Assembly: GCA_964637115.1 (NCBI GenBank)
Contig: CAZWVL010000008.1
Coordinates: 10,268 to 74,267, forward strand
Origin: an uncultured Methanosarcinales archaeon
GTDB lineage: Archaea > Nanobdellota > Nanobdellia > Woesearchaeales > ARS49
DNA length: 64,000 nucleotides
Direction of reading: 5' to 3'
Under the pieces are notes generated by a model that saw nothing but the letters and a program-made list of their open reading frames with translations, had not been told where the DNA came from and searched no databases. Position 1 is the first letter of the stretch, and every line of letters starts with the position of its first letter. Made by a program: the position numbers and the translations under genes. Of the stretch, positions 14,648 to 25,646 are shown piece by piece.

Positions 14648-15064
14648 ATCTGCTTTCATTCCAACCCGAATATTTTTCTTCTCAGCAGCGCCTGCATTCA
14701 ATTCAAGAACATACTTTGCAGGCTTTTCAGACGGATAAGTAGGACACGGATCAGCCTTGCACGGCAAGACATTGGCTTTAACTTCAACAACCATCATATT
14801 GCCGTCAAGAAAAATCATGTCCAGCGGAATTAATGTATTCTTCATCCAGAATGTTTTTGAAGATTCTTCATTAAAGATGAACAACATGCCGTGATTTTCA
14901 GGCATTGACTCACGAAACATCAAACCTTTACTCTGTTCTGCAGGAGTACGGGCAATCTCAATTTCAAAAGAAACGCCATTGTCGAATGTAACCATTGGTA
15001 TTGATGCGCACGCGGCTAACAACAACAAAAAAATTATTTCTTTAATCCCATGCTGCTTTTCCAA
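14636..15064 (-). CDS. DUF192 family lipoprotein
   Basis: EIARTPAEQSKGLMFR, GMLF, FWMKNT.IPLDMIF, YVLELNAG; lipobox LAAC. Confidence 0.85.
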   Translation of the reverse strand: MEKQHGIKEIIFLLLLAACASIPMVTFDNGVSFEIEIARTPAEQSKGLMFRESMPENHGMLFIFNEESSKTFWMKNTLIPLDMIFLDGNMMVVEVKANVLPCKADPCPTYPSEKPAKYVLELNAGAAEKKNIRVGMKADLRE

Positions 15065-15732
15065 ATCGGCACCTCATACGACATAGGCTCTTTTTCAAGT
15101 TTCAAGATACCAGCATCAATCAAGTCATCAATGTTCACCATATCCTTTGCAGAATCAGGAATTCTAGGACAGGCAGTGTTAACCCAATAGTCAATGAAAG
15201 TAAAGTTCTCAAACTCAGACATGTCAAGCTCATCGCAGGCAAAAATAAAGTATTCCTTGTCAGCTTTCTTCTGCAACTCCAATGCACGCATCAAGTTTTT
15301 CTGGCCAATCTTTGTCGTAACAATAATGCCAACCCTCTTTGCGTGCAAAAAATTGTTCAACTGGCCAAGCTTAAGCTTACGCCAATCATCAACACGCTTC
15401 TTGTCCAACAAGCCAAACTCTTTAGCCACAGGATTCCACAAATAAACCGGCTGTGAAGTCATCATTGCAACCTGAACAGGATGAAACTCGCCAGAACCAA
15501 CAAACAGCCATTGGTCAACATCTTTCTTGATTTTTTCAGCAGCAGAAGCATTGCAGCCAAGAACCTGGCCGGCAAGCATAGCGTGCTCCAACTGCTGGAT
15601 AATATCTGCCATCTTATGCTGATGCTGGATTGTAGTCACAACACCCCACCTGCCCTTCGGCAGCTTCTTCAGAACACTTTCCGGCATCCTAACGTCAAGA
15701 TTGCTCTTGGCATGAACGTGCATCAGTTTCAT
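15034..15732 (-). CDS. dph2: Diphthamide biosynthesis Dph2-like protein, lacking the N-terminal domain
   Basis: TTIQH, GQVLGC, FVGSGEFH, TTKIGQ, NTACPRI. Confidence 0.8.
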   Translation of the reverse strand: MKLMHVHAKSNLDVRMPESVLKKLPKGRWGVVTTIQHQHKMADIIQQLEHAMLAGQVLGCNASAAEKIKKDVDQWLFVGSGEFHPVQVAMMTSQPVYLWNPVAKEFGLLDKKRVDDWRKLKLGQLNNFLHAKRVGIIVTTKIGQKNLMRALELQKKADKEYFIFACDELDMSEFENFTFIDYWVNTACPRIPDSAKDMVNIDDLIDAGILKLEKEPMSYEVPIWKSSMGLKK

Positions 15733-15849
15733 AACAAAGAAATCGACGAGAGTCTTTTAAAAAGGTTTCGACAGTAAGTTCAAACTATCCTGAAAGGCAC
15801 GACTTTAGGACTGGATAAAAAGGTAGGACTTCTTGATGGTGTTCAAGTC

Positions 15850-17121
15850 TTAGTCAGGACTAAATCCCGCTTTCACGGCGCTCGCATTCTGGTCCTGTTT
15901 GTAATATGACGTCATCTGTTTTTTCCATCTATCAAATTCTGCCCAGGTCATGGCGCGATTTTCTGGCGCTATGCCAAGCTTGGCGCATGCCCATTCGTAG
16001 AGCCTGATAAAAACACGATAGTTACGACTCTCTGTTTGCTTATCTACCCAATATTTAGTGCTCATTATGTGTTCGGAAGGATAACTTTCCACACGAACGA
16101 TATCCTGCTTGCTACTCATTAGATTGTTTAATTCATTGATTGGAAATCTTTGTGTTCCTATGATTATATCGGGCATTTTTTTGCCCTCGTTTTTGAGAAG
16201 TCCAAGTCCGATTGTGAAAAACATAAGCCTACCGATGTAATAGGTCGTGTGTGGATTGGCGACACCAAGGTGATCATAGTAGTATTGTTCTGCCTTTTTT
16301 GTTTTGGTTATATGCGAGAGTGCTTCCATGTGCGCTTTGAATTCATTTATCCATACTTTATTGAAGTCAACGAGACGAACATATTGTTTGTCCAAAAATT
16401 CACCCCCTCCTTCGCTGAGAAGTTCGAACATGCTTGCGTAAAGCGTAATGATTGCTGGATTGGCCAGTTTTTCCCCTAATGCTTTGAGCTTGTTTCTGAA
16501 TTTTTCTTCAAATGCAAATGCACCTTTTACATTCTCATAATGGTGCTGACCAATTTCGTGGAAGAAATACTTGTAAACCGTTGGGTAGTCAAATTTGCCG
16601 AGATAATAGAATGGTCCGACGATACGTTCAACGACCCATAAACCATTGAAGTAGACGTAAACCTCTTTTATGTTTGAAAGGTCTTGCTTGTAGTCTCCGT
16701 ACCAGTCGCGATATTCGGCTTTCGGTGGTCGTATTATGTGTATGTGCATGTGAAAATCATCGTCTGTTACAGCGTGGGACGCGTCTCGAAGGGCTGCTTG
16801 AATGGAAATAAAAAGCATTCTTGAAGAGATGTCGATAAAGTCTTTCCATGTTGGTGCAGGTTTTTGCCCAAGAAGTTGAGTAATTTTGCTGTAGATTTTG
16901 TACTCCTTTTCATATGTCCCAGTTTTCATGTCAAGATAGGTTTCTTCTCTTTCTGGTTCTTTTAGGTGGTGTGAAACAAATAGTTGCCAATCTGATGCGA
17001 AATCCTGCGGGCGATAGCTGCGCACGTCTTCAGCCTCATATCCTGTTTGACCATACGTGATTGTAACAGTGACTTTTTTATCGTGCACGGGAAAAGTTGT
17101 AGTTCTGGTCTCAACTGGCAT
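15850..17121 (-). CDS. Putative zinc metallopeptidase (gluzincin-like)
   Basis: FFHEIGQHH motif, downstream SEGGGEF and YYIGRLMF. Confidence 0.5.
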   Translation of the reverse strand: MPVETRTTTFPVHDKKVTVTITYGQTGYEAEDVRSYRPQDFASDWQLFVSHHLKEPEREETYLDMKTGTYEKEYKIYSKITQLLGQKPAPTWKDFIDISSRMLFISIQAALRDASHAVTDDDFHMHIHIIRPPKAEYRDWYGDYKQDLSNIKEVYVYFNGLWVVERIVGPFYYLGKFDYPTVYKYFFHEIGQHHYENVKGAFAFEEKFRNKLKALGEKLANPAIITLYASMFELLSEGGGEFLDKQYVRLVDFNKVWINEFKAHMEALSHITKTKKAEQYYYDHLGVANPHTTYYIGRLMFFTIGLGLLKNEGKKMPDIIIGTQRFPINELNNLMSSKQDIVRVESYPSEHIMSTKYWVDKQTESRNYRVFIRLYEWACAKLGIAPENRAMTWAEFDRWKKQMTSYYKQDQNASAVKAGFSPD

Positions 17122-17302
17122 ATATGATTTAAGTCTCCACCTTTCTTTTTAAATATTCTCAAGATACAGAAGAATCCTTCACCTTCTTGAACAGTTCGAA
17201 AAGGTCGACTATAAAAAGAGTTTTTAGGACTGTAGGAAAAGGCGAGAGATTTATTTGTTTAATAGTTGTTAGTTTCAATCGGAAGAAAGGGCTAATCTAA
17301 TT

Positions 17303-18215
17303 GGGCAAGTTTACAAACTTTTTTATACATAGTTCATATAACCTAAAACATGAACGAAAATAGAAAATCTGGATACGTTGCAGGGGGAATATTTTTATTA
17401 GTTGGTATTCTTATTACTGTTGTAGGATTTGATTCAGGTTGGAATTCTGGAAAAATTACAATTATCGTTGGTGTCTTTTTCACTCTGCTTGGTATTGGGG
17501 GAATTTGGAAACCAGACATTATAGGTCAACCACTTGCTCACTATCTTAAACAAGTTGCTGAGAACCAGAAATCTGAATCAATTTCGCAGAATCAGAAAAA
17601 AACTAAAAATAGCACTCAGGCAATAGCAAAAGATCATTCTAATGTAACTGTACAAAATAACTATTATAAATCTGATCTTCCAGAAGAAAAAACATCAGAT
17701 GAAAAAAAAGAATTAATAAAAGAGATTGGTCAAGAGTTAACAAAAGAAAAATTATCTAACACACTAATAAAGTGTATACGATTGGCTAATTTAATTAATT
17801 CTAAAAAAGATGTTTTTTGGCTTGAGAATGAAGCTCAAGGATTTGATGAGAGGACTCGTGGGAAAATTAAAGATGAAGAAATACCAGATTATAGAATTAT
17901 AAATACAGAGATTAGATTAGCAAGTACCGCAGATATTGGTTATACCCCTCTTAATTATAAATTAACTTTAGGTAGCCCAATATTTCAAATAGAAGAATGG
18001 ATAGAATCTTATAATAAAACAACTTCTCCTGGTGAAATGATATTGACAGCTCCAATGACCGAAGCATTTAAAAAAATATATAGAGAATCTTTTCAGAAAA
18101 ACCCTCCATCTGAGAAAATACCGTATATCATTTCAATAAGTGAATTAAAAAAGATTTTAAATGGAGTAAAATTAAGAATAAATACGTTTATTTCTTCAAT
18201 AAAGTAAACTTGCCC
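17303..18215. repeat. 12-bp perfect inverted repeat pair flanking the AbiTii-like gene
   Basis: GGGCAAGTTTAC at 17303-17314 and GTAAACTTGCCC at 18204-18215. Confidence 0.8.
17350..18207 (+). CDS. Two-TM protein with AbiTii-like C-terminal domain
   Basis: LSNTLIKCIRLANLIN...WLENEAQGF...IPDYRII fits the AbiTii pattern; two N-terminal TM helices. Confidence 0.6.
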   Translation: MNENRKSGYVAGGIFLLVGILITVVGFDSGWNSGKITIIVGVFFTLLGIGGIWKPDIIGQPLAHYLKQVAENQKSESISQNQKKTKNSTQAIAKDHSNVTVQNNYYKSDLPEEKTSDEKKELIKEIGQELTKEKLSNTLIKCIRLANLINSKKDVFWLENEAQGFDERTRGKIKDEEIPDYRIINTEIRLASTADIGYTPLNYKLTLGSPIFQIEEWIESYNKTTSPGEMILTAPMTEAFKKIYRESFQKNPPSEKIPYIISISELKKILNGVKLRINTFISSIK

Positions 18216-18316
18216 TTAATTCTTGTTCTTTATGTATCGCATTCGCTTATTGAATAGAATGCTCTTTCTCTCGACTCTGCGGACGCAGGTTTTCGGAACT
18301 TCGTAACCGAAAACTA

Positions 18317-18436
18317 AACTAACAGGAATTTAACGGTTCGGAACGACCGCTTCGCTATTTTGCCAAGCAAAATTTGTCCCTCGCCCAAATTTGCTCCGCT
18401 ACGCTCCGCAAACTTCGTTAAATTCCGGCGTTATAT
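18317..18436 (-). repeat. attC-like imperfect palindrome (120 bp)
   Basis: Minus strand ATATAAC-GCC-GGAATTTAACG...CGTTAAATTCC-T-GTTAGTT, starting 10 nt after the stop of the NERD gene. Confidence 0.6.
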
Positions 18437-18446
18437 TTCAATTCGC

Positions 18447-19151
18447 CTACGCCTGCTTTAATAGAATTTTTGCTACTTTTTCTAATTCTTGAGAAGAGAA
18501 TTTAATCTTTGATTCTTTATTTTGTATGTAATTACCTAATTGATCGACTTTTAAAACAGGAACAGTTGGATTATCACAATGCAAAATTACATTATCGTGT
18601 GTAAAAACCACTATTCCATCTACCCATATTCTTAATGACTTACTAAATATGTTTTTTGACTCAACATATTGCTTTAATTTCAAAGCATTGCCTTTAACTT
18701 GTTTACTTGGACTTTTTATTTCGTGTTCTTCAGGGATTTTCCAGGTGTCTTTATATTGATACCAATTATCTCCCTCACATCTAAGTTCTCCTTCAAAATT
18801 TTTTGTTTCTATAACAAAGATTCCATTACTGCCTAAAACTATATGGTCAATGTTACCATAACCATCTGGTAAATTGACATCATTAATGAGGTAATAAGAA
18901 TCTGGCAAATTTTGAAGGGATTCTATGGTTATCTGTTCGCCTTGTAGACCTCTACTATAATTCATATAAAATTTAAAGAAAAATCCCCCAACCAATAACG
19001 AAATAACAAAAATATAAATTAGCGTAAAGTTCGTAATCAAAAATGAAATTAAAATCCCTACTCCCCCAATAGAAAAAAACATACTTGAAATATTTCTATA
19101 TAATTTTGCTTTGTCTTCTAAATACGTTCCTGTTTCTTGTAAATTTTTCAT
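18447..19151 (-). CDS. NERD domain nuclease-related membrane protein
   Basis: GLQGE, NDVNL...NIDHIVLGSNGIFVIETKN, SPSKQ; two N-terminal TM helices. Confidence 0.88.
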   Translation of the reverse strand: MKNLQETGTYLEDKAKLYRNISSMFFSIGGVGILISFLITNFTLIYIFVISLLVGGFFFKFYMNYSRGLQGEQITIESLQNLPDSYYLINDVNLPDGYGNIDHIVLGSNGIFVIETKNFEGELRCEGDNWYQYKDTWKIPEEHEIKSPSKQVKGNALKLKQYVESKNIFSKSLRIWVDGIVVFTHDNVILHCDNPTVPVLKVDQLGNYIQNKESKIKFSSQELEKVAKILLKQA

Positions 19152-19153
19152 TT

Positions 19154-19624
19154 TCAGTTATTGCTATCCTTGGGTGAAGCCATATGAACCACATCATCAT
19201 CGTCGTCATCTATCACCATATGAGCCGCAACATCATCACTATCATCGTATATCTTTGAGTGAAGCCATATGAACCACCACAATAACATTATAGAAAAGAA
19301 GTCAATAGGATTGAAGAAGACGGAGCGAATATAAGTTCTCTCAGGACTTGAATAATGTTGAAAGATGAAAAACGAGTAAAGATTGAGAAGGAGTGATATT
19401 GAAATAAGAACTATCATCAATTCTAAGAATAATTTATATATGATTGTTGAAACAGATAGTCTAGTTGTAACTTTTGTAACTTCTATAATCTTGCCTGACT
19501 CGTCGTATGTTGTTATCGTTTGTTCTCTTATCCAACCCAATAATTTTCTCAAAAATTCTCCAAATCTGTTCTTTCCCATACCTTTCTCTTTCAAGTATGT
19601 TTTTGTTTTCTGAAGATTCTTCAT
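19154..19624 (-). CDS. Hypothetical two-TM protein with Asp-rich tail
   Basis: N-terminus resembles that of the NERD gene; TATA box upstream. Confidence 0.6.
   Translation of the reverse strand: MKNLQKTKTYLKEKGMGKNRFGEFLRKLLGWIREQTITTYDESGKIIEVTKVTTRLSVSTIIYKLFLELMIVLISISLLLNLYSFFIFQHYSSPERTYIRSVFFNPIDFFSIMLLWWFIWLHSKIYDDSDDVAAHMVIDDDDDDVVHMASPKDSNN
19174..19277. repeat. 19-bp exact direct repeat GTGAAGCCATATGAACCAC
   Basis: Copies at 19174-19192 and 19259-19277, with a partial core (CCATATGA) between them. Confidence 0.85.
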
Positions 19625-19789
19625 ATTATTAATAGTAAATTCTCTTCTCTTTAATACTTTCTGAACGGCAGGCTACGGCGGACTTTGATTTTTTGCCTTC
19701 GGCATCGTAGTACTTCCTCTGCTTTTCACTACAGTTCGAAAAACTGCCTTTTTAAAGCCCTTCTTGAATAGTCCCTGAAGGTAGAGGAT

Positions 19790-20062
19790 CTAGGATGATT
19801 TTTTTCTTTGAAATAAAGACCAAATAACATAAACTAAGATCGCGGGAATAAGAATAATTACATCACGCAAAAGGGTTTGCCCTAAAGACCAGCATGTACA
19901 AGGATCGATTGTAAAGAGCGCCATCATTCTATATATGTTTTGATAGTCTGGACATTGGGCAGGTAAACACGTTGCTTGAGAAAATAGACGGACAACATAC
20001 CACCAAGGGACTGATGCAATAATCGATACAAACAATTTAGCTCTTGTAAAACGAAAGTTCAT
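19790..20062 (-). CDS. Hypothetical two-TM protein with Cys-containing loop
   Basis: Hydrophobic termini; four Cys in the loop. Confidence 0.6.
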   Translation of the reverse strand: MNFRFTRAKLFVSIIASVPWWYVVRLFSQATCLPAQCPDYQNIYRMMALFTIDPCTCWSLGQTLLRDVIILIPAILVYVIWSLFQRKKSS

Positions 20063-20206
20063 TGTTATAAATCACCAACTATTTTATTTAAATCTTTGGT
20101 AATCCTAGGGCAAAATTCTCACTTTTTCGGATAGTCTTTTAGCATATTAGAATAAAGCTTTGAATAAACACCAACAATTAAATACGCAGTAATTAATTTC
20201 AAGAAA

Positions 20207-22094: not shown

Positions 22095-25000
22095 TTATTT
22101 ATTTCTACGAGAATACCAAATGCCTATAATTGCCAGAGCGATAAGGATAAGCAACAAAATCCACCACAACCAGTTCACAGAACTGGGTTCAACTGCCACA
22201 GCGCCAGTAATTTCTCCTCCAGCAAATGAAGAGACCTGCTCAGGAATAAACGCCGGAATAGGCTTTTTTGATTCATCTGAAGCAAGCGTTGCGCCACCAC
22301 CAAAACTGCCAGGTCCTGGCTGCGCAGCAGGAGCTGCTGCAGGTTCGCCTCCAGTAGGAGGACCGTGACCTGTTGAAAGAGGACGGTGACTCGAACCGCC
22401 ACCTCCGCCGCCTCCACTACCGCCAACAGATGCAGGAGCAGGAGCTGCAACGACACTAACATTGCGTACGGCCTGTGCAGAATTTCCTGAAGAGTCAGTA
22501 ACGTCGTAAGTAACATTATATGTGCCGACAACAGAAAAGTTAACGCCATTGGTTACAACAATAGATCCTGTAACGTTTCCGTCAAAATTGTCTGAAGCTG
22601 TCGCGCTGGCGTCAACATAAGAAGAACCAACTGTGATTGTGGCCGGATTAGAGCCTAAGATAGTGATAACAGGAGGCGTTGTGTCAACAACATTAACAGT
22701 TCTCGTAACTTGAATTGCGACGTTACCTGAACTGTCAGAAACATCATACGTGACGATGTAAGCTCCTAAAATACTCGTGTCCACTGGGTTAACGGTCACA
22801 ATTGAACCAGTAATATTGCCATCATAATTGTCATCGGCAGTTGCACCATCATCAACATAAACACTGCCTGCTTCCACAGTCACAGGGTCAGAGCCAACCA
22901 AAGAAATAACTGGCAAAGTCGTATCAACAACGTTCACAGTTCTTGTGACTTGAACAGCAGAATTGCCTGAACTGTCAGAAACATCGTAAGTCACAGTGTA
23001 AACTCCAAGAGCACTCGTGTTAACAGGATTAACAACAACAATAGAACCAGTTAGATCACCATCATAATTATCCAAAGCAGTAGCACCATCATCAACATAA
23101 ACACTACCAACCTCAACAGTCACAGGATCACTACCAACCAAAGAAATAACTGGTAAAGTCGTATCAACAACATTAACAGTACGAGTAACTTGAACAGCCG
23201 CATTGCCTGAACTGTCAGAGACATCATACGTCACGATGTAAGCGCCTAAAACGCTTGTATTAACAGGATTAACTGTTACAATAGACCCCGATAAGTCACC
23301 GTCGTAATTATCCAAAGCAGTAGCACCATCATCAACATACACAGAACCAACCTCAACATTTACTGGAGTCGAACCAACTAAAGAGATAACTGGATCAGTA
23401 GTATCAACAACATTAACAGTACGCGTAACCTGAACTGCAGCATTGCTGGAAGAATCGGAAACATCATAAGTCACGACGTAAGCACCAAGAGCACTAGTAT
23501 TAACCGGATTCACAACAACAATAGAACCGGTAAGGTCGCCATCTCCAGCATCCAAGGCAGTCGCGCCATCATCAACATAAACACCGCCAACTTCCACAAC
23601 AACAGGAGTTGAACCAGCTAACGTAATGACAGGAATACCAGTATCAACAACATTAACAGTACGCGTAACTTGAGTAGCCGCGTTACCAGAACTATCAGAC
23701 ACGTCATACGTCACGATATAAGCGCCAAGAACACTGGTATTCACAGGATTAACAACAACAATAAAGCTTGTTAGGTCGCCATCATAATTATCAAAAGCAG
23801 TCGCACCATCATCAACATAAACACTACCAACTTCAACATTCACAGGAGTTACGCCAACCAAAGAAATAACCGGATCAGTAGTATCAACAACATTAACAGT
23901 TCTCGTAACCTGAACAGCAGCATTACCAGAACTGTCAGACACGTCGTAAGTCACAATGTAAGCACCAAGAGCACTGGTATTCACAGGATTAACAGTAACT
24001 ATAGAGCCGGTAAGGTCACCATCTCCCGCATCAAAAGCAGTCGCACCATCATCAACATACACAGAACCAACCTCAACATTTACTGGAGTTGAACCTGTTA
24101 ACGTGATAACCGGCACACTGGTGTCAACAACATTCACTGTACGCGTAACCTGAACTGCAGAATTACCAGAACTATCAGAAACATCATAAGTTACGGTGTA
24201 AGCGCCAAGAGCACTGGTATTAACAGGATTAAAAGTAACAATAGCGCCAGTCAGATCACCATCGTAATTATCAAGAGCAGTTGCGCCATCATCAACATAA
24301 ACGCTACCTACTTCTATATTTACTGGAGTTGAGCCAGCCAAAGAAATAACCGGATCAGTAGTATCAACAACATTAACGGTACGAGTAACCTGAACAGCAG
24401 AATTACCAGAACTATCAGAAACATCATACGTAACAACATACGCGCCAACAACGCTCGTATTAACAGGATCAACTGTTACGATAGAACCTGATAAGTCACC
24501 ATCGTAATTATCCAAAGCAGTGGCACCGTCATCAACATAAGCGCCGCCTACCTCTATATTTACTGGAGTTGAACCAACCAAAGAAATCACAGGATCAGTA
24601 GTATCAACAACATTAACAGTACGCGTAACTTGAGCTGCGTCATTTCCAGCAACATCAGAAACATCATAAGTAACTATGTACGCACCAACAACACTCGTGT
24701 TGACCGGATTGACAGTAACAATAGAACCAGTCAAATCACCGTCGTAATTATCAAGAGCAGTCGCACCGTCATCAGAATAAACAGAACCAACTTCAACATT
24801 CACTGGAGTTGAACCAACCAAAGAAATAACCGGATCGGTAGTATCAACAACATTAACAGTACGCGTAACTTGAACCGCGTCATTTCCAGCAGCATCAGAA
24901 ACATCGTAAGTCACGATGTAAGCGCCAAGAGCACTAGTATTAACAGGATTCACAACAACAATAGAACCGGTAAGGTCTCCGTCAACATTATCCAAAGCAG

Positions 25001-25646
25001 TGGCACCATCATCAACATAAGCGCTGCCTGCTTCTATGGTTACAGGAGTAGAACCAACAAGCGTGATAACAGGAGGTGTTGTATCTGGTGCACCTGCAAC
25101 CTCAGTCAGGGTTCCGAGATTTGTTCCATTGGAAACTGAGGCAATTACTGACGTGCCCATCTTCGTGATGTTTCCGCTCGCCAAAGGCGATACCGCTGTC
25201 GGCCGCACACGGACATTCTGCCAGGTCAAACGATTCCTGACACCGCCGTTCGAAACATTCAAAACCGTGAAAACAATCACTGTTGTGTTCACCGATGTAA
25301 TATTAAGCGATGTGCCATTGGCTGCACTATTGATATTCTTTGTGTCAGGACCAGAACCGGCAGTCCTTTCCAACAACACCGTAACAGCCGGCGAGCCCGT
25401 GTCAAACTCAAAACCAGAAGGAATTTGAAGAATGATTGTTCCAGCTTTAATATCAGAAGCAGCAGTCTCGGCAAGAGCAGGCCCTGTAAGCGTTGTGTAC
25501 GCGCCACCAACATCATCCGCTGAAATTGCCCCGCCACCAGTTGCTAGAGTTACTGTTGCAGCCGATACAGCAACAGAGCTCAAAATAAACAAAAATGATA
25601 AAACAAGCAATCTAAGACAATCACGCGCCGGCTTCCAAGTGTACAT
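22095..25646 (-). CDS. Large cell-surface protein with 11 DUF5011/HYR-type Ig-like repeats and a C-terminal TM anchor
   Basis: Signal peptide; 80-aa units DTTxPVIxLxG...GATAxDxxDGDL...YDVSDSSGN...RTVNVV; Gly/Pro linker; C-terminal TM plus basic tail. Confidence 0.9.
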   Translation of the reverse strand: MYTWKPARDCLRLLVLSFLFILSSVAVSAATVTLATGGGAISADDVGGAYTTLTGPALAETAASDIKAGTIILQIPSGFEFDTGSPAVTVLLERTAGSGPDTKNINSAANGTSLNITSVNTTVIVFTVLNVSNGGVRNRLTWQNVRVRPTAVSPLASGNITKMGTSVIASVSNGTNLGTLTEVAGAPDTTPPVITLVGSTPVTIEAGSAYVDDGATALDNVDGDLTGSIVVVNPVNTSALGAYIVTYDVSDAAGNDAVQVTRTVNVVDTTDPVISLVGSTPVNVEVGSVYSDDGATALDNYDGDLTGSIVTVNPVNTSVVGAYIVTYDVSDVAGNDAAQVTRTVNVVDTTDPVISLVGSTPVNIEVGGAYVDDGATALDNYDGDLSGSIVTVDPVNTSVVGAYVVTYDVSDSSGNSAVQVTRTVNVVDTTDPVISLAGSTPVNIEVGSVYVDDGATALDNYDGDLTGAIVTFNPVNTSALGAYTVTYDVSDSSGNSAVQVTRTVNVVDTSVPVITLTGSTPVNVEVGSVYVDDGATAFDAGDGDLTGSIVTVNPVNTSALGAYIVTYDVSDSSGNAAVQVTRTVNVVDTTDPVISLVGVTPVNVEVGSVYVDDGATAFDNYDGDLTSFIVVVNPVNTSVLGAYIVTYDVSDSSGNAATQVTRTVNVVDTGIPVITLAGSTPVVVEVGGVYVDDGATALDAGDGDLTGSIVVVNPVNTSALGAYVVTYDVSDSSSNAAVQVTRTVNVVDTTDPVISLVGSTPVNVEVGSVYVDDGATALDNYDGDLSGSIVTVNPVNTSVLGAYIVTYDVSDSSGNAAVQVTRTVNVVDTTLPVISLVGSDPVTVEVGSVYVDDGATALDNYDGDLTGSIVVVNPVNTSALGVYTVTYDVSDSSGNSAVQVTRTVNVVDTTLPVISLVGSDPVTVEAGSVYVDDGATADDNYDGNITGSIVTVNPVDTSILGAYIVTYDVSDSSGNVAIQVTRTVNVVDTTPPVITILGSNPATITVGSSYVDASATASDNFDGNVTGSIVVTNGVNFSVVGTYNVTYDVTDSSGNSAQAVRNVSVVAAPAPASVGGSGGGGGGGSSHRPLSTGHGPPTGGEPAAAPAAQPGPGSFGGGATLASDESKKPIPAFIPEQVSSFAGGEITGAVAVEPSSVNWLWWILLLILIALAIIGIWYSRRNK
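22460..25085 (-). repeat. Intragenic tandem repeat, 240-bp period, 11 units
   Basis: GTATCAACAACATT-type sequence recurs every 240 bp from 22681 to 24841. Confidence 0.95.

Follow-up and report, generated by a model that had tools for sequence, protein, structure and literature searches.

An attC-like folded DNA site in a decayed archaeal defence island points to a cassette family associated with Xer-like recombinases in DPANN archaea

The window, a 64,000-nucleotide stretch of a single contig, holds an accessory island of about 4.3 kb, the features of which are listed in Table 1. G+C content is 33% over 17-20 kb and 42-46% around it. A sequence-only reading of this DNA had described the region as accessory, and comparison with relatives agrees: in four same-genus genomes (G003:C19, G006:C20, G009:C9, and G011:C15), the island is replaced by 160-460 bp, the distance that there separates its flanking genes, a Dph2-like gene and RNase_H_2 / 87-aa genes. 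Two defence-type genes lie within the island in convergent orientation. The AbiTii gene has a TATA-like stretch about 25-30 nt upstream of its ORF, and its protein has no homologues among 150 genomes of the order, so the cassette that carries it could not be traced in other arrays. The NERD protein shows weak matches to the NERD regions of the defence proteins MADS6, PglW, and MkoA. The spacer between these two genes is higher in G+C than its surroundings. The 423-aa ORF at the left has no match in Pfam, NCBIfam, or PADLOC, and a homologue was absent in 39 of 40 relatives. No tyrosine recombinase (PF00589) was found in the window or in the whole 98%-complete genome; the sequence-only reading had rightly seen no integrase in the window, and the search of the genome for an IntI-like recombinase that it proposed came back empty.

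Table 1. Features of the island in window coordinates, with the roles proposed for them here
Feature	Position	Strand	Remarks
Accessory island, about 4.3 kb	15775..20115	.	Missing in same-genus genomes; low GC
423-aa ORF	15850..17121	-	No family match; divergent from the junction, at the place of the recombinase in relatives; start 147 nt from G17268
attI-like half-site	17250..17268	+	TTTATTTGTTTAATAGTT then G; L'-like arm and short spacer, ending where the crossover is inferred, after G17268
Complete AbiTii gene cassette, 1162 bp	17269..18430	+	Opens with TTAGTTTCAAT and a leader; promoter region of its own (TATA-like) and ORF; folded 3' part reaching to the G of R'
Leader segments	17284..17314	+	17284-17292 with 18261-18269; 17303-17314 with 18204-18215
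AbiTii cassette gene, 285 aa	17350..18207	+	C-terminal AbiTii domain (abortive-infection type); Pfam PF18864 1.5e-16; PADLOC AbiTii 4.6e-16
3' folded region of AbiTii cassette	18204..18314	+	Parts given by fold
Right copy of 12-bp inverted repeat	18204-18215	+	Part of 3' folded region
Side hairpin A	18219-18260	+	Part of 3' folded region
Stem segment	18261-18274	+	Part of 3' folded region
Side hairpins B	18277-18288 and 18289-18314	+	Part of 3' folded region
Core recombination site	18316..18436	+	Element of the sequence-only reading; model R1 125 bits, covariation, boundary tests
R'' box	18316-18323	+	AAACTAAC
Single base A	18324	+	Part of core site
L''	18325-18335	+	GGAATTTAACG
Variable inner structure	18336-18415	+	Part of core site
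L'	18416-18426	+	CGTTAAATTCC
Spacer GGC	18427-18429	+	Part of core site
R' box	18430-18436	+	GTTATAT
Second unit, reversed two-gene cassette without own core site	18431..19722	+	5' end TTATATTTCAAT; truncated upstream module at end
NERD-domain protein, 234 aa	18447..19151	-	Pfam PF08378 2.5e-23
156-aa ORF	19154..19624	-	Same unit and orientation as NERD; no match in Pfam, NCBIfam, PADLOC
Remnant of type-2 upstream module	19681..19708	+	GACTTTGATTTTTTGCCTTCGGCATCGT; 28 nt identical to the module before the first site of G030:C2

The spacer between AbiTii and NERD contains an imperfect palindrome whose end (18436) lies 10 nt from the NERD stop (18447). Its outer boxes carry TAAC (18320-18323) and GTTA (18430-18433), L'' and L' form a perfect 11-bp stem, and A18324 stands opposite GGC in a 1x3 bubble, all of which the sequence-only reading had located correctly. 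When folded as single-stranded DNA, the 120 nt reached -23 kcal/mol (z = -3.06), and none of 200 shuffled sequences folded equally well. A covariance model of the family, R1, scored the site at 125 bits (E 3e-27); R1 was derived from homologues of the window site itself, so its matches define the family and are not an independent test of it. The match was obtained on the plus strand only. The site faces the plus strand, with AAACTAAC as R'' and GTTATAT as R', and belongs to the co-oriented AbiTii cassette, where it had earlier been read on the minus strand and assigned to NERD. Further copies, the search for which had also been suggested, were found as homologues of 81-84% nucleotide identity in other genomes, whereas the own genome holds this single copy (sequence search and R1 scan).

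In an alignment of nine homologues, 94% of the cells pair, and double changes were seen in 16 of the 29 pairs, a level attained by none of 500 shuffles. The conserved element extends beyond the 120 nt to the whole 239-nt spacer (18208-18446) and to its pairing with the cassette 5' leader (17269-17314), and homologues in other families keep the 3' folded region of the cassette, with changes that compensate each other. That the palindrome arose in this AT-rich spacer by chance has negligible probability on this evidence: short TAAC and GTTA words are frequent in AT-rich DNA, but the E value was reached against a model from other taxonomic families, and identity and compensatory changes would not be expected of a coincidence.

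Members of the family are present in 70 of the 151 genomes sampled from this order (Woesearchaeota-type; 46%), and over 100 further DPANN assemblies carry them as well. At least 120 contigs match the R'-side pattern, nearly all of them labelled Woese-, Pace- or Nanoarchaeota; in the single IMG/VR contig with this pattern, R1 detected nothing at E <= 1e-4. The sites form arrays of up to nine on the same strand, spaced by 0.15-2.5 kb, with one or two genes between sites, and no locus has sites on both strands. Flanking genes are different at every copy, and ORF orientation within arrays is mixed, unlike in classical integrons. Over 145 sites, TAAC and GTTA are present in 125; the ungapped 11-bp L stem, perfect in the window, is perfect in 72 and matches at 10 of 11 positions in 36 (74% together). 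The bubble is 1x3 in 105 of the 145, and in 89% the 3' side, between L' and R', exceeds the other by exactly two unpaired bases, the sole constant asymmetry in sites of 63-192 nt (median, 105 nt). Of the features by which attC sites are recognized, family and window site both have an imperfect palindrome with pairing R'' (..YAAC) and R' (GTTR..) boxes, an unpaired central spacer, and a terminal structure that varies; the L box of both lacks extrahelical bases.

The boundaries between successive cassettes were examined through pairing of the bases that follow GTTA in one site with those that precede TAAC in the next. On average, 4.4 of 5 bases paired, and 22 of 32 comparisons were perfect, against 2.5 of 5 with the R'' of the same site and 2.05 of 5 for random pairs. 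In a replicate with 112 new sites, the values were 3.6 of 5 versus 1.75 of 5. The next site gave the better match in 22 cases and the own site in none, then in 24 and 2, respectively (total, 46 versus 2). Furthermore, the rare variants GATA and GTTT are matched by covarying changes in the next site. Array sites are therefore chimeric, with an R' beyond the crossover that matches the R'' of the next cassette, and at the sequence level this next-site pairing is the chimeric-site signature of integron cassettes. This family evidence for recombination is comparative and comes from assembled contigs. It supports the attC-like assignment made by the sequence-only reading, and none of the circumstances which that reading had named as counting against it (no model match, no IntI-like gene, fixed gene order) was encountered at family level.

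The same data bear on two further explanations. A miniature transposable or REP-like palindrome (MITE, BIME), spread into spacers by transposition, would fit a non-coding repeat that is palindromic and structured, recurs in many genomes, and often sits at the end of a contig, and one of the archaeal genomes densest in MITEs is Woesearchaeal (PMC11602168). This origin is nonetheless most unlikely, given the single copy in the own genome, the arrangement of copies in one-strand arrays beside one recombinase clade instead of dispersal, and the pairing of a copy's ends with the next copy and not with each other, which is unexpected for terminal inverted repeats; no target duplication was noticed. 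A structured non-coding RNA that AbiTii and NERD, as convergent genes, would share (for instance a 3' UTR element, a terminator, or an antitoxin RNA) is highly improbable. Its appeal lies in the position between two convergent defence-type genes, the G+C-richer composition, and the strongly covarying helices; however, no match to an Rfam family (gathering score) or to a tRNA (ARAGORN) was found at the core site, the flanking genes change from copy to copy, and pairing reaches across gene boundaries into the next unit. The pairs are also nearly all Watson-Crick, with one G-U in 233 cells of the nine-homologue alignment and G-T at 17 of 1595 L-stem positions (1.1%) over 145 sites, which points to a constraint at the DNA level or on both strands. 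An IS200/IS605-type end or an RNA gene in the spacer had also been considered and was dropped given the arrays and the boundary test.

In addition to the core site, the two ends of a cassette are complementary to each other. Complementarity between the leader and the 3' region was found in 59 of 68 cassettes versus 53 of 340 controls. In the window, the 5' end of the AbiTii cassette is complementary to its own R'' across 8 nt, with 17269-17275 pairing with 18316-18322. The modelled circular junction of this cassette folded to -50.0 kcal/mol, compared with -37.1 kcal/mol in the array context and -37.7 +/- 1.9 kcal/mol when the 5' part was shuffled (z about -6.5), and contained 31 cross pairs in four helices.

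A Xer-like gene, always divergent, stands 270-1210 bp away from the first site in 15 genomes that belong to different families. Of 20 recombinase genes chosen by position alone, 16 form one branch (SH-aLRT 99) and 4 fall outside it, while none of 20 other Xer-like genes lies inside. The recombinase genes start 80-160 nt from an attI-like junction, and the 5' end of the first cassette agrees with R'' of the first site at 9 of 9 positions in four genomes and 8 of 9 in three. The array-adjacent enzymes are 252-303 aa long and match the integron-integrase model TIGR02249 at profile positions 1-181 and 238-314 only; positions 182-237, the insertion region, are absent. No contiguous match to TIGR02249 was found in 151 genomes of the order, and none above cut-off in five array genomes. 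The archaeal XerA/dif system offers a comparison for the enzyme: the best solved-structure match is Pyrococcus abyssi XerA (PDB 4a8e; 1.2e-47, full length), and NCBIfam XerA scores are 196-217 bits. These scores are, however, just below the cut-off of 220, whereas a second paralogue in the same genomes scores 230-282 bits and separates from the array-adjacent enzyme on the tree.

These enzymes bear directly on whether the window holds a canonical integron attC site served by a classical IntI with its insertion around patch III, as a single attC or CALIN remnant of the kind described by Ghaly et al. 2022. The TAAC/GTTA ends, imperfect palindrome, central bubble, and variable inner structure are as expected of such a site, family arrays are chimeric and spaced below 4 kb, and attC clusters without IntI are known from a few Woesearchaeales MAGs (Ghaly et al., PMC9668308). 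We consider this assignment unlikely, however, because the array-associated recombinases are Xer-like and lack the IntI insertion and TIGR02249 finds no contiguous partner in 151 genomes of the order. Moreover, the L stem is ungapped and perfect or off by one position in 74% of the 145 sites, without extrahelical bases and beside a 1x3 bubble, cassette-end pairing runs well past the R box, and the family occurs in 46% of sampled genomes, against integrons in 75 of 6718 archaeal genomes (about 1%) by the canonical model (Ghaly et al. 2022, PMC9668308).

The left end of the AbiTii cassette resembles the attI-like junctions of relatives. The half-site there agrees with the junction consensus (..TTTAATANNT before and GTTANNNNNAAT after the junction) found 80-160 nt upstream of array-adjacent recombinase genes in 11 relatives, and its TTAA-to-GTTA spacing is 5 nt, as in those junctions, while array sites have 8 nt. 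R1 gave nothing useful on 17222-17300 because it cannot see half-sites. The sequence-only reading had taken this place for a second attC site. The motif that it noted, GTTAGTTT, is indeed the exact complement of AAACTAAC, but it lies at 17268-17275 and not at 17258-17265, and what it marks is an attI-like half-site joined to the cassette's own 5' end, 10 nt further right. A 41-nt copy of 17239-17279 is present in a different context in sequencing run X9.

To the right of the core site, the second unit is bracketed by a 14-nt inverted repeat (18491-18504 and 19636-19649) and ends in the module remnant. Modules similar to this remnant occur in G096, G041, and G027; in the window, the rest of the module and the expected core site are missing after it, and R1 detected no site nearby. 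Near-identical pieces spanning only the second unit, without AbiTii, were found in runs X8, X9, and X10 from other studies, a comparison of assembled contigs of which some are short and low-depth. The X9 contig departs from the window after 19722. In the X10 contig, the NERD unit stands behind a different L' arm and spacer with the same GTTATA, such that the partner switches at the inferred crossover. Near-identical pieces of the 156-aa ORF region, within 19122-19525, lie in X8-X10 on short contigs separate from the NERD pieces.

Collectively, these findings suggest that the window element is very probably the core of a folded-DNA, attC-like recombination site, whose family bounds mobile cassettes in DPANN archaea (Woesearchaeota/Pacearchaeota type), and that the platform in the window is decayed. 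In relatives, such a platform has three parts: a gene for the Xer-like tyrosine recombinase, which is divergent; an attI-like half-site, located 80-160 nt upstream of this gene; and an array of cassettes on one strand. Each cassette closes with TAAC, a gap of 1 nt, the L stem of 11 bp, a loop that varies, the return arm, a gap of 3 nt, and G, and the next one begins at TTANNNNNCAAT. Because the two cassette ends are complementary over the R box and then over a further 10-17 nt of leader, or more, a cassette excised as a single strand or as a circle would fold into a single long, branched hairpin that encloses the crossover. Cutting would be by the Xer-like enzyme, presumably on a single-stranded substrate, and at the core site the bond cleaved would be the one after G18430. 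The window has a core site in the family orientation, leader complementarity, and an attI-like half-site, but the 423-aa ORF stands where relatives have the divergent recombinase of the Xer-like clade. It would then be what is left of a platform, with the junction, the AbiTii cassette, and a reversed NERD and 156-aa cassette without a site. One site plus remnants falls short of an attC array in the usual sense (two or more sites in the same orientation within 4 kb, or an adjacent IntI), which the family does form. With no recombinase in the window or genome, we make no claim of activity for the window site; it is most likely a fossil or usable only by an enzyme acting in trans.

The proposed family shares much with integron attC sites and arrays (Cury et al. 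2016, PMC4889954; Ghaly et al. 2022, PMC9668308): a folded imperfect palindrome with TAAC/GTTA boxes, an unpaired spacer, and variable inner structure; one-strand arrays with spacing below 4 kb and chimeric sites whose distal R' comes from the next cassette; a divergent tyrosine recombinase with the insertion point (attI) just upstream; and cargo rich in defence, toxin, and orphan genes, integrase-less arrays or single sites being frequent. It differs in its Xer-like recombinase without the IntI insertion, in an L stem without extrahelical bases and with a fixed 1x3 bubble, in ORFs of both orientations (the AbiTii ORF has its own TATA-like stretch), and in its presence in close to half of the genomes sampled from a single archaeal order. 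A further difference is that cassette ends pair tens of bases past the R box, with side hairpins, which would place the crossover inside a hairpin of about 290 nt and not at its foot.

Two other systems invite comparison. CTX-phi, a Vibrio phage, has a folded single-stranded attP that is integrated at dif by XerC/XerD, and other Xer-exploiting elements are known as IMEX. The likeness to these elements lies in tandem stacking at one chromosomal site and would lie in a Xer-type enzyme acting on a single-stranded DNA hairpin that resembles a core site of two arms around an unpaired centre, an action putative for the family; in contrast, the family enzyme is a dedicated array-side paralogue and not the housekeeping Xer, and the units are gene cassettes, many per array. 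SALIN, a category of IntegronFinder 2, denotes single attC sites without an integron integrase. The window, with one intact site, no integrase, and decayed neighbours, looks like a SALIN, except that its site belongs to a Xer-associated family and that an attI-like junction is still present on its left.

On balance, we lean towards the view that DPANN archaea carry a widespread integron-like capture system with a dedicated Xer-clade enzyme that lacks the insertion considered essential in integron integrases, and with long split hairpins that lack extrahelical bases and contain the crossover. The window would be an end state of such a platform, its integrase gone, one cassette complete, and the following one truncated, and the system would be either an independent invention of the integron principle or a likeness of the Xer-like ancestor of integrons. 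No published description of such a Xer-type cassette system was found; in the literature on DPANN/Woesearchaeota integrons and Xer-linked cassettes, Ghaly et al. 2022 was the only relevant work that came to light. The defining enzyme of integrons is IntI, with an insertion that reads extrahelical attC bases, whereas the proposed system would produce the same cassette arrays and chimeric sites with a plain Xer-like enzyme and sites without such bases. If this view is correct, the integron principle would be independent of the IntI insertion, a testable model for the origin of integrons from Xer/dif would be at hand, and the shuffling of defence and surface genes in ultra-small archaea with genomes of about 1 Mb would be explained. 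Most of the cassette arrays in DPANN genomes are probably overlooked by standard integron finders; the family is present in 46% of sampled genomes, compared with about 1% of archaeal genomes by canonical models.

The strain-specific 4.3-kb defence island with AbiTii and NERD could likewise be explained as a stranded piece of such a platform. Its ends had been sought in 12-bp direct repeats, ACAGTTCGAAAA. R1 found no site near these genus-wide repeats in G003, G013, and G007, and the repeats were rejected as att sites of the island; they are parts of a 50-75-nt repeat common to same-genus genomes.

The attC-like element folded more strongly over its 120 nt than 200/200 shuffles (z = -3.06), and the TAAC and GTTA words, the perfect 11-bp stem and the 1x3 bubble described in the sequence-only reading were all located at its main coordinates. 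The second motif named there, GTTAGTTT, is also present; its true place is 17268-17275, ten bases further right than it had been put, which was the sole slip. Rfam and ARAGORN gave no match at the element.

Features of the island and its surroundings, in window coordinates
Feature	Position	Strand	Length	Remark
Diphthamide-synthesis ORF	15034-15732	minus	232 aa	left edge of island
ORF without family	15850-17121	minus	423 aa	in the recombinase gene's place in related platforms
Intergenic repeats with ACAGTTCGAAAA	17173-17246; 19716-19767		50-75 nt	both sides of the island's AT-rich part
attI-like half-site	17250-17268
AbiTii cassette	17269-18430
AbiTii-domain protein	17350-18207	plus	285 aa
Spacer between convergent AbiTii and NERD genes	18208-18446		239 nt	holds the attC-like element
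Core site	18316-18436	plus
Inner stem	18325-18335 / 18416-18426		11 bp	perfect
NERD unit (NERD + 156-aa ORF)	18431-19722	reverse orientation		from T18431
NERD protein	18447-19151	minus	234 aa
Inverted repeat bracketing the NERD unit	18491-18504 / 19636-19649		14 nt
Module remnant	19681-19708		28 nt	end of NERD unit
Tandem-repeat ORF	22095-25646	minus	1183 aa

The element occurs as one copy in its own 1.27-Mb genome. Further copies, which the sequence-only reading had proposed searching for, were found at the DNA level in other families of the same order (81-84% identity) and nowhere else in this genome. Same-genus genomes gave short fragment matches only, the closest being one diverged copy in G004, and no copy was found at the window's locus in those searched. 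Compensatory changes were seen in 19/30 predicted pairs when the element was aligned with the relatives' copies. In the core alignment, 94% of cells pair and 16/29 pairs show double changes, which was matched by 0/500 shuffles. Together, the relatives' copies, the compensatory changes and the shuffle tests rule out a chance origin of the element. G-U was found in 1/233 core cells, and G-T in 17/1595 L-stem cells across 145 sites; such near-pure Watson-Crick pairing fits a constraint on DNA and not on a transcript. An RNA gene was set aside, as the pairs are almost purely Watson-Crick and Rfam and ARAGORN were blank.

A covariance model of the site family built from nine copies (R1) found sites in 70/151 sampled genomes of the order, all genomes compared being metagenome bins. 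The matches are mostly clustered on one strand and spaced 0.15-2.5 kb apart, as in contigs G096:C3 (nine sites) and G089:C2 (seven), with one or two functionally unrelated ORFs, in either orientation, between neighboring sites. The model is strand-specific (e.g., 130 bits vs 16 on the opposite strand), and no locus with sites on both strands was found. The R'-side pattern (R' being the outer right box of the site) alone matched at least 120 contigs in a species-level genome collection, nearly all labelled Woese-, Pace- or Nanoarchaeota, where our own estimate of the chance expectation is ~9 matches. Cargo in the arrays at loci L025-L034 includes a Mrr-type restriction endonuclease with a HARE-HTH domain, a NUDIX hydrolase, a STAS-domain protein and many family-less ORFs, oriented roughly half and half relative to the sites. 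Good R1 sites also lie on bacteria-binned contigs (L113, L135 and L137, labelled Patescibacteria, Peribacteria and Bdellovibrionales), and the three at L135 score equal to those of the archaeal contig G124:C91; these contigs may be mis-binned, the other reading being cross-domain cassette exchange. The unpublished genomes G010, G023, G135 and G155 are counted in the DNA search of relatives and in the 70/151, same-genus and Xer tallies; no specific claim depends on them.

The sites of an integron array are chimeric, the R' bases past the crossover deriving from the next cassette and matching its R'' (Cury et al. 2016, PMC4889954). We therefore compared the five variable bases after GTTA with the five before TAAC. 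In a first set of 32 adjacent pairs, the R' of one site agreed with the R'' of the next at 4.4/5 bases (22 perfect) and with its own R'' at 2.5/5, while random pairs agreed at 2.05/5 (3.4% perfect); the next site was the better match in 22 informative pairs and the own site in 0. A second set of 112 new pattern-found sites, with 37 adjacent pairs, gave 3.6/5 for the next site, 1.75/5 for the own and 2.0/5 for random pairs, the next being better in 24 informative pairs and the own in 2. Rare variants also covary with the next site (GATA with TATC, GTTT with AAAC), which indicates that the second base of GTTA is already part of the downstream unit.

Conservation reaches left of R'', into hairpin modules that make sense when a cassette's two ends are joined. 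In 59/68 cassettes, compared with 53/340 mismatched controls (median length, 13 vs 8 nt), the leader that follows ..CAAT is exactly complementary, over 10-17 nt, to a segment lying 40-170 nt before the next TAAC. The R box is thus a single part of a longer, interrupted stem, with the modules as its side branches. The left-most module (..CCCTTAAT.CTTGTTCTTGAT..) is present as three copies within 400 nt at L019 (G037:C35, 630-960) without a core site, so modules can occur or decay on their own.

Intersecting the R1 matches with those of the archaeal XerA model placed a Xer-like gene at a distance of 270-1210 bp from the array's first site in 15 genomes belonging to different families. This gene is divergent from the array in all of them, and five further Xer-like genes lie 2.6-7 kb away. 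The array-adjacent proteins (252-303 aa) score 185-224 bits with the XerA model (cut-off 220), and their closest solved relative is Pyrococcus XerA (4a8e). Only positions 1-181 and 238-314 of the integron-integrase model match them, on either side of the IntI insertion, and IntI4 (2a3v) matches in two pieces. A second Xer-like gene (230-282 bits) is usual in these genomes. A tree was built from 20 genes picked on position only and 20 further Xer-like genes; 16/20 of the former group on a single branch (SH-aLRT 99) that contains none of the latter. No contiguous IntI match was found in the 151 genomes of the order, in a search whose control genomes likewise hold no IntI. Upstream of the adjacent recombinase genes, by 80-160 nt, is a junction between ..TTTAATANNT and GTTANNNNNAAT. 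Its GTTA, together with five bases, is complementary to the first site's R'' at 9/9 positions in four genomes and at 8/9 in another three. The junction is an attI analogue, similar in form to a site's right half. The absence of an integrase noted earlier for the window extends to its whole genome (G000, 98% complete), where neither a tyrosine recombinase (PF00589) nor a XerA-type gene was found; the same holds for one same-family genome, whereas 123/151 genomes of the order have such a gene.

Read in the family orientation, the window's site faces the plus strand and forms the AbiTii cassette's 3' end. The cassette begins at G17268, followed by TTAGTTTCAAT; the 12-mer here also occurs, unchanged, as the R' and flank of four other sites. 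Ahead of it is TTTATTTGTTTAATAGTT (17250-17267), which agrees with the attI-type junction, the 5-nt spacing included. A model of the circular junction (18196-18430 joined to 17269-17322) folds at -50.0 kcal/mol, compared with -37.1 in array context and -37.7 +/- 1.9 with the 5' part shuffled, and has four cross helices, among them the R box and a 12-bp repeat (17303-17314 / 18204-18215). The remnant at the end of the NERD unit belongs to a module that precedes sites elsewhere, and no core site was found after it with R1. The 423-aa ORF has no match in Pfam, NCBIfam or PADLOC, and 39/40 relatives lack it; the single homologue, in G036:C46, is 25% identical. In four same-genus genomes, the block 15775-20115 is replaced by 160-460 bp. 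The contig is at least 74 kb long, and the island in it has a diphthamide-synthesis gene on one side and an RNase H-fold gene on the other, which makes a mis-binned bacterial fragment unlikely.

The full stretch was found in seven runs of two sediment studies, which may be the assembly's own source. Runs of other studies hold the NERD unit only, the AbiTii cassette being covered in none of X8, X9 and X10. X9 has pieces spanning 18436-19722, with 0-16 differences each and then divergence, and X8 holds 19035-19459. The X10 contig matches from 18437 onward; upstream it has a different L' arm (the inner right box) and spacer, then the same GTTATA. The NERD-only runs and the changed partner in X10 suggest that the NERD unit travels separately, its left end coinciding with the inferred crossover of the window's site; this evidence comes from assembled contigs and not reads, some short and of low depth, with no excision shown in this organism.

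In the likely mechanism, the Xer-like enzyme encoded beside the array would bind the folded single strand at its R and L stems, as though these formed the arms of a dif-like core. The central region would be the 1x3 bubble, marking strand and direction, and strands would be exchanged beside the G of GTTA, the partner being either the attI-like half-site or a further site. What the assemblies record are only the products of such exchange (boundaries and shuffled neighbors) and genetic linkage to the enzyme clade.

Judged by its position, fold, arrays, chimeric boundaries and attI-like entry point, in all of which it is like an integron attC, the element appears to work like one. Unlike canonical attC, however, the family has no IntI carrying the insertion, the L box of its sites has no extrahelical bases, and this genome has no second site. 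Since these three defining tests failed, we class the element as a variant, not a member. In the VchIntIA-VCR structure of MacDonald and colleagues, the IntI insertion reportedly binds the extrahelical bases, so that the joint absence of both is coherent. Smyshlyaev et al. 2021 (PMC8138268) cite MacDonald et al. 2006 for the insertion as essential to integron function. Integrons have been reported in 75/6718 archaeal genomes, with few Woesearchaeales MAGs, two of which had four attC each and no IntI (Ghaly et al. 2022, PMC9668308). A search of the literature gave no description of Xer-linked cassette arrays in DPANN archaea.

Three further observations concern the island's surroundings. Of the 302 positions in the Pfam profile, the diphthamide-synthesis ORF matches only 64-271, which may reflect a miscalled start or a shortened gene. 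The repeat containing ACAGTTCGAAAA recurs with 84-91% identity at unrelated same-genus loci (G003:C2, G013:C50, G007:C27 and G003:C28) and may represent a promoter-like element or a further family of small inserts. The 1183-aa ORF consists largely of 10-11 tandem 240-bp (80-aa) repeats with 65-82% identity and probably encodes a repetitive surface protein.
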